NCBI RefSeq assembly: GCF_013122565.1
Contig: NZ_CP053258.1
Strand: one strand, 5' to 3'
DNA length: 64,000 nt
From: Escherichia coli
Lineage (GTDB): Bacteria; Pseudomonadota; Gammaproteobacteria; Enterobacterales; Enterobacteriaceae
Shown: positions 10,824 through 60,607 of the stretch, one piece after another
Layout of the letters: each line of letters opens with the position of its first letter
Numbering within the stretch: position 1 is the first letter of the stretch
The notes under the pieces: model-generated
Seen by the model: the letters and a program-made list of their open reading frames with translations, nothing else
The model's database searches: none
What the model was told of the DNA's origin: nothing
Translations under genes and position numbers: made by a program

Positions 10824-10894
10824 AGCCGGGTAGGCCTGATAAGACCGTATCAGGCATCATGGCCGGATGCGGCGTTAACGCCTTATCCGGCCAC
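10824..10894. repeat. REP/BIME element between convergent ypfH and ypfN
   Basis: GCCGGGTAGGCCTGATAAGAC...GCCGGATGCGGCGTTAACGCCTTATCCGGCC. Confidence 0.8.
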
Positions 10895-22146: not shown

Positions 22147-22218
22147 GTAGACCGGATAAGACGCTGTAGGCCGGATAAGACGCGTCAGCGTCGCATCCGG
22201 CAATCAGCATCCGGCGAT
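22147..22218. repeat. REP/BIME element between ypfG and tktB
   Basis: CCGGATAAGACGCTGTAGGCCGGATAAGACGCG...CGCATCCGGC. Confidence 0.8.
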
Positions 22219-35526: not shown

Positions 35527-35611
<85 letters not shown>

Positions 35612-45246: not shown

Positions 45247-45682
45247 GTTTCATCCTGTCCATTATGATGCGCACGGTCGCCTGCGTTTACCCTTGCTCTT
45301 CTGGCTTGTGCTATTGCTTCAGGCGCGAACCTGGGTGCTGTTTGTCATTGCCGGTGCGTCGCGCGAGCAGGGTACTGCGCTGCTAAATCTGTTTTATCCC
45401 GATCACGATAATTTCTGGCTGGGGCTGATTCCTGGCATTCCGGCGGTGCTGGCGTTTTTGTTGAGCGGTCGGCGGGCTACGTTTCCTCGCACCTGGCGTG
45501 TACTCTATTTTCTGTTGCTGTTGGCGCAGGTGGTTTTACTTTGCTGGCAACCGTGGCTGTGGCTGAACGGTGAATCCGTTAGCGGTATCGGTCTGGCGCT
45601 GGTAGTGGCGGATATTGTGGCGTTAATCTGGCTGCTGACCAATCGACGTTTACGCGCTTGTTTTAATGAAGAAAAAGAATAA
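45233..45682 (+). CDS. yfeZ: inner-membrane protein YfeZ (DUF2919)
   Basis: 149 aa from [29 protein letters not shown]. Confidence 0.85.
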
Positions 45683-45703
45683 CGCAGAGGTGCGCTTTGT
45701 TTA

Positions 45704-45803
45704 TGCCGGATGCGGCGTGAACGCCTTATCCGGCCTACAAAACATCGAAAATTCAATATATTGCAGGAGAAAGTAGGCCTGATAAGCGTAGCGCATCAGG
45801 CAA
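45704..45803. repeat. REP/BIME element (two PUs with linker) after yfeZ
   Basis: GCCGGATGCGGCGTGAACGCCTTATCCGGCCTAC ... linker AATTCAATATATTGCAG ... GTAGGCCTGATAAGCGTAGCGCATCAGGC. Confidence 0.85.
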
Positions 45804-45888
45804 TTTTGTGTTTGTCATCAACCTTTAACGGCACTTTTTGGTGAATTTGAACTCCAAGCAACGTTATTGAATAACCAAAGGAAGTGAC

Positions 45889-47459: not shown

Positions 47460-47516
47460 GCGTTTCTGATTCGATGATGAAAGGCCAGGCAGTAACATTA
47501 CTGACTGGCCTTTTTA

Positions 47517-57277: not shown

Positions 57278-57315
57278 GTAGGCCTGATAAGACGCGCAAG
57301 CGTCGCATAAGGCAA
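57278..57315. repeat. REP-like palindromic unit just upstream of cysM
   Basis: GTAGGCCTGATAAGACGCGCAAGCGTCGCATAAGGC. Confidence 0.7.
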
Positions 57316-57336: not shown

Positions 57337-58248
57337 GTGAGTACATTAGAACAAACAATAGGCAATACGCCTCTGGTGAAGTTGCAGCGAATGGGGCCGA
57401 ATAACGGCAGTGAAGTGTGGTTAAAACTGGAAGGCAATAACCCGGCAGGTTCGGTGAAAGATCGTGCGGCGCTTTCGATGATCGTCGAGGCGGAAAAGCG
57501 CGGGGAAATTAAACCGGGTGATGTGTTAATCGAAGCCACCAGTGGTAACACCGGCATTGCGCTGGCAATGATTGCCGCGCTTAAAGGCTATCGCATGAAA
57601 TTGCTGATGCCCGACAACATGAGCCAGGAACGCCGTGCGGCGATGCGTGCTTATGGTGCGGAACTGATTCTTGTCACCAAAGAGCAGGGCATGGAAGGTG
57701 CGCGCGATCTGGCGCTGGAGATGGCGAATCGTGGTGAAGGAAAGCTGCTCGATCAGTTCAATAATCCCGATAACCCTTATGCGCATTACACCACCACCGG
57801 GCCGGAAATCTGGCAGCAGACTGGCGGGCGCATTACCCATTTTGTCTCCAGCATGGGAACAACCGGTACTATCACCGGCGTTTCACGCTTTATGCGCGAA
57901 CAATCCAAACCGGTGACCATTGTTGGCCTGCAGCCGGAAGAGGGTAGCAGCATTCCCGGCATTCGCCGCTGGCCTGCGGAATATCTGCCGGGGATTTTCA
58001 ACGCTTCTCTGGTGGATGAGGTGCTGGATATTCATCAGCGCGATGCGGAAAACACCATGCGCGAACTGGCAGTGCGGGAAGGAATATTCTGTGGCGTCAG
58101 CTCCGGCGGCGCGGTTGCCGGAGCATTGCGGGTGGCAAAAGCTAACCCTGGTGCGGTGGTGGTAGCGATCATCTGCGATCGTGGCGATCGCTACCTCTCC
58201 ACCGGAGTGTTTGGGGAAGAGCATTTTAGCCAGGGAGCGGGGATTTAA
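57337..58248 (+). CDS. cysM: cysteine synthase B (O-acetylserine sulfhydrylase B)
   Basis: 303 aa from GTG start reading MSTLEQTIGNTPLVKLQRMGP; PLP enzyme. Confidence 0.93.
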   Translation: MSTLEQTIGNTPLVKLQRMGPNNGSEVWLKLEGNNPAGSVKDRAALSMIVEAEKRGEIKPGDVLIEATSGNTGIALAMIAALKGYRMKLLMPDNMSQERRAAMRAYGAELILVTKEQGMEGARDLALEMANRGEGKLLDQFNNPDNPYAHYTTTGPEIWQQTGGRITHFVSSMGTTGTITGVSRFMREQSKPVTIVGLQPEEGSSIPGIRRWPAEYLPGIFNASLVDEVLDIHQRDAENTMRELAVREGIFCGVSSGGAVAGALRVAKANPGAVVVAIICDRGDRYLSTGVFGEEHFSQGAGI

Positions 58249-58277
58249 GGATTAATAGCATTGGAGACTGATGACAA

Positions 58278-58371
58278 ACGCAAAACTGCCTGATGTGCCA
58301 CGCTTATCAGGCCTACAAGGTTTCTGCAATATATTGAATTAGCACGATTTTGTAGGCCGGATAAGGCGTTT
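58278..58371. repeat. BIME: intact PU plus left half of a second PU that is split by the IS
   Basis: TGCCTGATGTGCCACGCTTATCAGGCCTAC ... CTGCAATATATTGAATT ... GTAGGCCGGATAAGGCGTTT. Confidence 0.8.
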
Positions 58372-59277
<906 letters not shown>

Positions 59278-59778
59278 TTTCCAGGAGATGCTCCTGCATG
59301 GCTTTCAGATATGCATTTTCTGCGCGAAGATAACGCAGCTCATTCTTCATCTCTTCCGGCGTCATGTTTGCCTCGTTTTCATGGGTATCATCAGAACGGG
59401 TCATGCTTTTCTCCTTCCTGCGCCTGATAAAGGCCTCATTACCAGATTTGCGGTAGCCTTTTATCCAGTTTTTAACCATGTTGTGGCTGGGAATGTTAAA
59501 CCGGGCAGCTACCCGGGGTAGAGACTCAGAATGCCCGAGAGCATAAAGAACCACGCAAAGTTTATCTTCAGGAGAATAGCTACGCTTGTGTCTGCAATCC
59601 AGTGCCTGAGGACCGTGAAGAAGAAAAAGATTAATCCAGTGTGAGAGGCTGGTGTGAGAAAGTTGAAAGAGTTTTGCCGTAGAAAGGATGCCTGCATGAC
59701 CGGCCAGGTAATGATTTACAGCGGCAAGTTTTACTTCAAATGAATGTTTCATAAACTGCACCTTCAGATGTCAGATTA

Positions 59779-59803
59779 TGTCCAACATTTGGGGTGCAGT
59801 TCA
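59779..59803. repeat. IS terminal inverted repeat (orfA-proximal end)
   Basis: reverse complement TGAACTGCACCCCAAATGTTGGACA. Confidence 0.8.
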
Positions 59804-59822
59804 GTTTACGCCGCATCCGGCA
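59804..59822. repeat. right half of REP palindromic unit split by the IS (includes GTTT direct repeat)
   Basis: GTTTACGCCGCATCCGGCA; with 58350..58371 reconstitutes GTAGGCCGGATAAGGCGTTTACGCCGCATCCGGCA. Confidence 0.8.
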
Positions 59823-59872
59823 TAAACAAAGCGCACTTTGTCAACAGTTGTTGCTGCCGACAAATGCAGTAT

Positions 59873-60607
59873 TTAATTTTCGTGAGGAAAAGCCGTAAGG
59901 TCATCAATCATTTTTTGAAGTATTGGTGAGTCCTGACCGTCACCCCATTGAAGAATTTTTGCGGTAAGCTGATGACGTTCTAGCGCATTGAGTCCCATCT
60001 TTTTAAGTTTAAGGGAGATTTTACCCATGACTTTAATCTGACCGAATGCAGTTGCGTAGGTAATCATATTGCTCTGGATAGTGCTCATTTCATCGACTAG
60101 TAATTGCGCACGAACATCCTCTTCAAGAATACTGTCCATAGCGATGTATTTCATACCCCACATAGTTTCAATTAACATTTGAGGGAAATCAGCACAGTCC
60201 AGATCCGGCTCTTTACGGAGGCTATTTTCAAGAACGTTTAGAGCATCAGCACCTTCATCGCTGCCAAAAGGAGATTCTTCATCCCAGCAACACATATAAA
60301 GTGGATCAGTAAAATGGCACTGGAAGTTTGGGTGTGACGTTTTAACATGTAACCCAATTTCTTCATCATCAAAATAGTAGCGATCCATGAAGTTAAACTT
60401 TGGATCTTCTTGATATCCTTTTTTCATTTTTGCGGCAATCAATTTACTGGCTTCTTTCAGACACTGTTCTTCATTATCGAATTCTTTTGTATGGAATTTA
60501 CCAATACTACCTACCTTGCCATAGTTGACAGCTAAACTATCCCCTTCGTAATCTATCCACCAAAATTTATTCGATTTTTCATCGTGATAAATAAAGCATT
60601 TTTTCAT
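59873..60607 (-). CDS. yfeS: WGR-like domain protein YfeS
   Basis: 244 aa, MKKCFIYHDEKSNKFWWIDYEGDSLAVNYGKVGSIGKF. Confidence 0.88.
   Translation of the reverse strand: MKKCFIYHDEKSNKFWWIDYEGDSLAVNYGKVGSIGKFHTKEFDNEEQCLKEASKLIAAKMKKGYQEDPKFNFMDRYYFDDEEIGLHVKTSHPNFQCHFTDPLYMCCWDEESPFGSDEGADALNVLENSLRKEPDLDCADFPQMLIETMWGMKYIAMDSILEEDVRAQLLVDEMSTIQSNMITYATAFGQIKVMGKISLKLKKMGLNALERHQLTAKILQWGDGQDSPILQKMIDDLTAFPHEN

Follow-up and report, generated by a model that had tools for sequence, protein, structure and literature searches.

The window, the 64-kb stretch of Escherichia coli DNA analysed here, carries two short repeat elements of the BIME kind. Element 1 begins 8 nt past the yfeZ stop codon when its conserved outer flank is counted, upstream of yfeY; element 2 begins ~20 nt past the cysM stop codon, in the opposite orientation to element 1, and faces yfeS. 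The gene names agree with K-12 and RefSeq annotation, yfeZ being named already in a preliminary description of the window, and the extents proposed there for the two BIMEs (45704-45803 and 58278-58371) are essentially correct. Both loci align as flank-Y-L-Z1-flank over ~125 nt. They share one mosaic order: an outer flank, GTGCGCTTTGTTTAT, a 34-nt Y unit, a linker of 34-35 nt, an inverted 29-nt Z1 unit, and a second outer flank that reads (A/G)TTTTG(T/C)GTTTGTCATC in both. The Y unit of element 2 is split by an insertion sequence. The features are as follows.

45685-45830, no strand: 146-nt block made up of element 1 and its outer flanks GTGCGCTTTGTTTAT and ATTTTGTGTTTGTCATC; missing in K-12
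45705-45738, plus strand: Y-type palindromic unit of element 1, GCCGGATGCGGCGTGAACGCCTTATCCGGCCTAC; intact, no insertion sequence
45739-45772, plus strand: L linker of element 1 (34 nt), between the Y tail CTAC and the Z1 tail GTAG
45750-45766, plus strand: first copy of the shared 17-mer, AATTCAATATATTGCAG, located by sequence search
45751-45763: IHF-consensus-like ATTCAATATATTG within the first 17-mer copy, by consensus match
45773-45801, minus strand: Z1-type (short) palindromic unit of element 1
58270-58286: outer flank of element 2 on the Z1 side, GATGACAAACGCAAAAC
58288-58316, plus strand: Z1-type palindromic unit of element 2
58317-58351, minus strand: L linker of element 2 (35 nt)
58324-58340, minus strand: second copy of the 17-mer (reverse complement on the plus strand), located by sequence search
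58352-58371, minus strand: tail half of the Y unit of element 2, ending in one copy of the GTTT duplication (58368-58371)
58372-59803, minus strand: IS1397, 1432 bp, IS3 family, with TG...CA inverted-repeat ends, identified from RefSeq-annotated relatives
58404-59752, minus strand: IS1397 transposase orfA/orfB
59804-59821, minus strand: head half of the Y unit of element 2, beginning with the second GTTT (59804-59807)
59822-59836: outer flank of element 2 on the Y side, ATAAACAAAGCGCAC

This anatomy is that of BIME-1, in which a long linker, L, lies between z1 and y units (Ton-Hoang et al.). One Y and one Z1 unit stand inverted at either locus with their GTAG/CTAC tails toward the linker, and the linkers, at 34 and 35 nt, have the length of the L family (~32-35 nt) and are not the short S linker of BIME-2. 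Each locus holds a single Y-L-Z1 with no tandem array, and both copies are extragenic and 3' of genes. The assignment of the two elements to one BIME subfamily, made in the preliminary description, is thus upheld, and the subfamily can be named from the anatomy at both loci. Folded as single strands, Y and Z1 each give a hairpin, and the complete element is able to form one long hairpin with the linker as its loop; an inverted-repeat search with the default seed recovered only the pairing of the palindromic-unit tails.

The two linkers have in common the 17-mer listed above, which is found in exactly two copies by exact and near-exact search of the window, with no further match at two or fewer mismatches in the 64 kb. 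That both BIMEs contain this sequence had been claimed before and is confirmed, the chance expectation being a mean of 0.01 matches over 100 dinucleotide shuffles, none of which reached two. The position first assigned to it, 45735-45760, is ~6 nt off and takes in only the first 11 bases of the 17-mer plus part of the linker. Identity between the copies extends over exactly 17 nt, the flanking base differing at either side, and an alignment of both loci finds mismatches at most linker positions outside it. An inner stretch of 10 nt, CAATATATTG, equals its reverse complement, so the copies take their relative orientation solely from the bases outside it and from the order in which Y and Z1 flank the linker. 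Positions 2-14, ATTCAATATATTG, fit eight of the nine specified positions of the IHF consensus WATCAANNNNTTR in both linkers.

The insertion sequence downstream of cysM is IS1397, as had been proposed. It is 99.7% identical to RefSeq copies whose annotation reads "IS3-like element IS1397 family transposase" and notes a programmed frameshift, and its length (~1.43 kb), its TG...CA ends (TGAACTGAACCCC... and ...GGGGTGCAGTTCA), and its orfA (HTH) and orfB (DDE/rve) are those of the family. So is its insertion into a palindromic unit at the central loop, with 3-4 bp duplicated. K-12 MG1655 retains the uninterrupted BIME-1 between cysM and yfeS, reading ...GTAGGCCGGATAAGGCGTTTACGCCGCATCCGGCA... and including the exact 17-mer, with a single GTTT at the empty site, GGATAAGGCGTTTACGCCGCATCC. 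In the window the borders of the insertion read ...GGCGTTT and GTTTACGCC..., so that GTTT is duplicated (4 bp). The intact K-12 site proves both the insertion point and the 4-bp duplication, and its unbroken Y unit bears out the statement that the BIME on the cysM side is the one struck. Folding of the Y unit places GTTT at the loop apex of the hairpin.

Of 5426 complete E. coli genomes, 3496 contain IS1397 sequence, and 1707 of these hold a full copy. The cysM junction with IS1397 occurs in two of the 5426, the duck isolates HYM1 and T-HYM1 (NZ_CP141767.1, 1469656-1473455), where nucleotide, orientation and GTTT duplication are the same as in the window (58072-59900 compared). A 600-nt junction of HYM1/T-HYM1 is 96.7% identical to the window, and the IS differs at 10 of 1432 nt. 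The shared site could reflect recurrent insertion or an old insertion carried by recombination.

Linkers of this kind are numerous in E. coli. Searching 5426 complete genomes with a 53-nt linker query locates such places in 5425 of them, at a median of no fewer than 31 per genome; this median is a lower bound, since 1944 records reach 40 or more pieces. The best conserved part of the linker is the TCAATATATTGCA core, and linkers sampled independently of the exact 17-mer (those of IS-targeted BIME-1s and a K-12 copy between yfeX and yfeW) differ from it by one to four mismatches. A scan for the exact 17-mer covered one genome per species (298 Gb). Among the matches listed, it lies at no fewer than 14 loci in E. 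albertii, at 15 or more loci with 16 copies in E. whittamii, at four loci in each of two further Escherichia genomes, and at 13 and eight loci in two Pseudocitrobacter genomes. Each of the 63 exact 17-mers listed for Escherichia and Pseudocitrobacter belongs to a Y-L-Z1, intact or decayed, as does each of two further exact copies on contigs that resemble E. coli contamination. Elsewhere (Firmicutes, Bacteroidetes, cyanobacteria and others), the matches listed are single copies with no palindromic units near, as expected by chance in 298 Gb. The possibility, raised in the preliminary description, that the 17-mer is ubiquitous and unrelated to REP elements is therefore not what the species scan finds: the sequence is multi-copy but tied to REP/BIME-1 in enterobacteria, and it can serve as an exact tag for BIME-1 in Escherichia and close relatives.

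On contig NZ_BBMY01000001.1 of E. albertii, four or more BIME-1-like units stand in tandem, all with AATTCAATATAATGCAA as their linker core, whereas BIME-1 is described as occurring in single units. An E. coli-type Y-L-Z1 is also found in a 262-nt contig of Desulfosporosinus sp. OT and in a Bacteroides MAG contig, probably through contamination or mis-binning.

Element 1 is polymorphic in E. coli. The 146-nt block between yfeZ and yfeY is missing in K-12 and present in 307 of 5426 complete genomes. It is bordered by a 5-nt direct repeat, TAACG, at 45680-45684 and 45826-45830, and K-12 retains one TAACG. Conversely, K-12 has a BIME-1 between yfeX and yfeW, with the linker core AATTCAATATATTGTGG, that is missing in the window (~47480-47510); this element lies between two copies of a 26-nt terminator hairpin, one of which is retained in the window. 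E. whittamii holds both the yfeZ-yfeY and the yfeX-yfeW elements with the same bordering repeats, and because both are present in this outgroup, the absences look like losses and not like recent insertion. They look like deletions between flanking direct repeats, resembling the precise excision of transposons.

The shared 17-mer is the long-known L motif of BIME-1, and the two copies are ordinary members of an already known family. Such elements reportedly received the name RIB from Boccard and Prentki in 1993 and the name RIP from Oppenheim et al. in 1993, and Gilson, Bachellier and Hofnung are said to have worked on BIME-1 and its L motif. The linker is described as conserved and IHF-binding (PMC3333891, PMC2817692); the inter-REP sequence of BIME-1 interacts with IHF (Nunvar et al., PMC2817692), and BIMEs with an IHF site are recorded elsewhere (PMC3184786). 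An IHF ChIP paper (PMC3333857) makes no mention of REP or BIME. From the consensus match and the published family work, IHF would be expected to bind both copies described here. If they behave as the family literature describes, the linker, placed at the 3' end of a transcription unit between two units that form hairpins, would be bound and bent by IHF. The same literature suggests that the palindromic units might form RNA or DNA hairpins at transcript 3' ends and might serve as binding sites for gyrase and Pol I. All in all, it is very probable that the 17-mer forms the conserved core of the L linker in BIME-1, with a near-consensus IHF site, and that IS1397 targeting is a separate matter, governed by the palindromic unit.

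Three other accounts of the shared linker have to be weighed against this one. The two copies might be identical through recent duplication or gene conversion between these loci, or by chance. The loci are only ~12.5 kb apart and their outer flanks are similar too, yet the linkers differ at most positions beyond the 17-mer, and the exact 17-mer recurs in several species, in dozens of BIME-1 copies that are not linked. The cysM copy is moreover orthologous in K-12 and the yfeZ copy in E. whittamii, and the shuffles, with 0.01 matches expected, exclude a chance origin. Unlinked copies, orthology and shuffles together effectively refute chance, local duplication and gene conversion as sources of the shared sequence, whose probability is negligible. 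The copies are identical because both belong to a repeat family that numbers dozens of copies and has a constrained linker core, with no tie to the IS.

The linker could alternatively be primarily an sRNA gene, with the 17-mer kept for an RNA-level function and not for IHF binding. Rfam release 15 contains a covariance model, RF02751 (ES036, also CssrF), with a gathering score of 37.6 bits. The cysM linker exceeds that score (58309-58351, minus strand, 40.9 bits) and the yfeZ linker falls below it (45740-45780, plus strand, 28.1 bits); both copies also lie directly past stop codons and are likely co-transcribed. Against an sRNA gene, the model hairpin is poorly supported, its stem being mostly unpaired in both copies (six of eight pairs non-canonical in each alignment). 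The consensus of the model (43 nt), AAAuUUGUGCAAAUUCAAUAAAUUGCAGGAaAUACGUAGGCCU, joins the BIME-1 linker to the beginning of Z1 (GTAGGCCU). It is one section of a DNA repeat dispersed in 31 or more copies per genome, which lie in either orientation relative to neighbouring genes. A literature search on ES036/CssrF returned unrelated papers only. A primary sRNA gene is accordingly unlikely here; an sRNA reading does not exclude IHF binding of the linker, the two being mutually compatible. The ES036 "sRNA" family is in effect a model of the BIME-1 linker, which calls for caution among annotators. A second RNA model, naRNA4 (RF02564), partially matches the Y unit at 45699-45735.

The third account is that the L linker, or IHF on it, steers IS1397, so that BIME-1s with the linker are preferred targets; this is the reading behind the earlier suggestion that the shared linker might mark such targets. 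Natural insertion sites bear on it directly. IS1397 sites were gathered from public assemblies with five common orfA variants, the window's own orfA and one orfB variant; two RefSeq matches were added and orthologous places collapsed, leaving ~36 distinct sites, some of them known by one flank only owing to metagenome contigs that are chimeric across IS copies. In the public assemblies, the variant of orfA that the window carries was found on one short contig only. Eight of the ~36 sites are BIME-1 with an L-like linker (22%, 95% CI 10-39%), the linker cores showing 0, 0, 1, 2, 2, 2, 3 and 4 mismatches to the 17-mer. At a further 27 the IS lies in a unit of the Y, Z2 or Y/Z2-hybrid type that belongs to a BIME-2 array or an atypical BIME or stands on its own, with no L-like sequence; in one of the 27, Y stands beside Z1 with the linker deleted. 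The last site, inside a DUF554 gene, has no palindromic unit. At all eight BIME-1 sites the Y unit, and never Z1, holds the IS (p = 0.5^8 = 0.004 against 50:50).

Whether eight sites exceed expectation depends on the share of eligible long units that lies in BIME-1, which is bracketed at ~6-30%. The floor of ~6% comes from comparing the linkers of a genome (31 or more) with the REPs of K-12 (584; PMC3333891), and the range of ~7-30% from counts, with few units, in two sets of sequence, one roughly unbiased (269 kb) and one made up of loci centred on the 17-mer (292 kb). Binomial tails for 8 of 36 are 0.001, 0.02, 0.16, 0.43 and 0.89 at backgrounds of 6, 10, 15, 20 and 30%. In favour of steering, the observed 22% would be a ~2-3-fold excess if BIME-1 Y units made up 6-10% of those eligible (p = 0.001-0.02), and BIME-1::IS1397 junctions occur at other loci in many genomes (matches over query positions 189-600). 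At 15-30% the excess vanishes (p = 0.16-0.89), so that the BIME-1 share counts as an excess only if BIME-1 Y units are 10% or less of eligible units; a simpler cause for any excess is that the best-consensus Y units reside in BIME-1. Overall, the observed share is compatible with no preference as well as with a preference of up to ~2-fold.

Other evidence speaks against steering more plainly. The 28 of 36 sites without L-like sequence include solitary units, BIME-2 arrays and the one without a palindromic unit. The yfeZ BIME-1, with the identical 17-mer, carries no IS1397 in the window, and only 2 of 5426 complete genomes have one in the cysM BIME-1. The linker is thus neither necessary nor sufficient for insertion, and its role as a requirement is ruled out by the 28 natural sites that lack it. 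Set against the 6-30% background, the presence of the linker at 8 of 36 distinct sites lends the proposed marker no support. Since the IS is always in Y and never in Z1 within BIME-1, the determinant is the type of palindromic unit. Published work reports that IS1397 inserts specifically in REPs and ascribes this specificity to the transposase (PMC1525189; PMC3184786), which recognises palindromic units (PMC1525189). Steering by the linker is very unlikely. A weaker version, in which IHF bending of the L linker raises insertion into the neighbouring Y unit ~2-fold without the linker being required, is likewise improbable.

The target of IS1397 is the palindromic unit, Y or Z2, and not the linker. 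In mechanistic terms, the transposase would recognise long palindromic units of the Y or Z2 type, insert at the loop apex and duplicate 3-4 bp. At the locus described here, it struck the Y unit of the BIME-1 downstream of cysM, with the linker lying beside the target and presumably outside what is recognised. The 17-mer is consequently unfit for predicting IS1397 sites, since what the IS targets is a Y or Z2 unit. Elsewhere in the window, four REP/BIME loci (10825-10891, 22147-22201, 35528-35610 and 57282-57313) consist of Y, Z2 and hybrid units and carry neither L nor IS1397.

In the E. coli record CP025716.1 (~3158069-3161990), IS1397 lies in the DUF554 gene with junctions free of any palindromic unit, an insertion independent of such units. 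The 24-nt end pattern of IS1397, TGAACTGMACCCCAAAWSYTGGAC, was also searched in metagenome contigs, where palindromic-unit flanks were found at 2 of 120 loci among the matches listed. Harvesting junctions by this pattern is nearly useless because the terminal repeat is common to many unrelated IS3-family elements of non-enteric bacteria; it occurs, among others, at the ends of IS3-family elements with AT-rich Firmicutes-like flanks or with Neisseria-type "GGTCGTCTGAAA" flanks. Several IS1397 copies have left and right flanks from different chromosomal loci, which reflects either recombination between IS copies or chimeric metagenome assembly across the repeat.

What was noticed here rediscovers, from raw sequence, the BIME-1 L motif with its IHF site and a known habit of IS1397, and as such matters little. 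Compared with the BIME-1 (RIB/RIP) elements already described, the two copies show no material difference. They share the inverted pair of Y and Z1, the one long linker, conserved and with an IHF-consensus site, the extragenic 3' position, the many genome copies and the presence/absence polymorphism between strains, and their linkers vary outside the 17-mer core as those of other members do. The core of RF02751 ES036 (CssrF) is one base off the 17-mer. The insertion downstream of cysM likewise has no differences from IS1397 of the IS3 family, matching it in its 1432 bp, TG...CA ends, orfA/orfB frameshift and apex insertion with a 4-bp duplication. REPINs, which are REP doublets forming hairpins (PMC3116915), and MITE-like elements resemble both BIME-1s in the inverted two-REP doublet with a spacer, the long-hairpin fold and the discrete presence/absence alleles between short direct repeats, but for the copies described here the outgroup comparison suggests loss by deletion over recent insertion.
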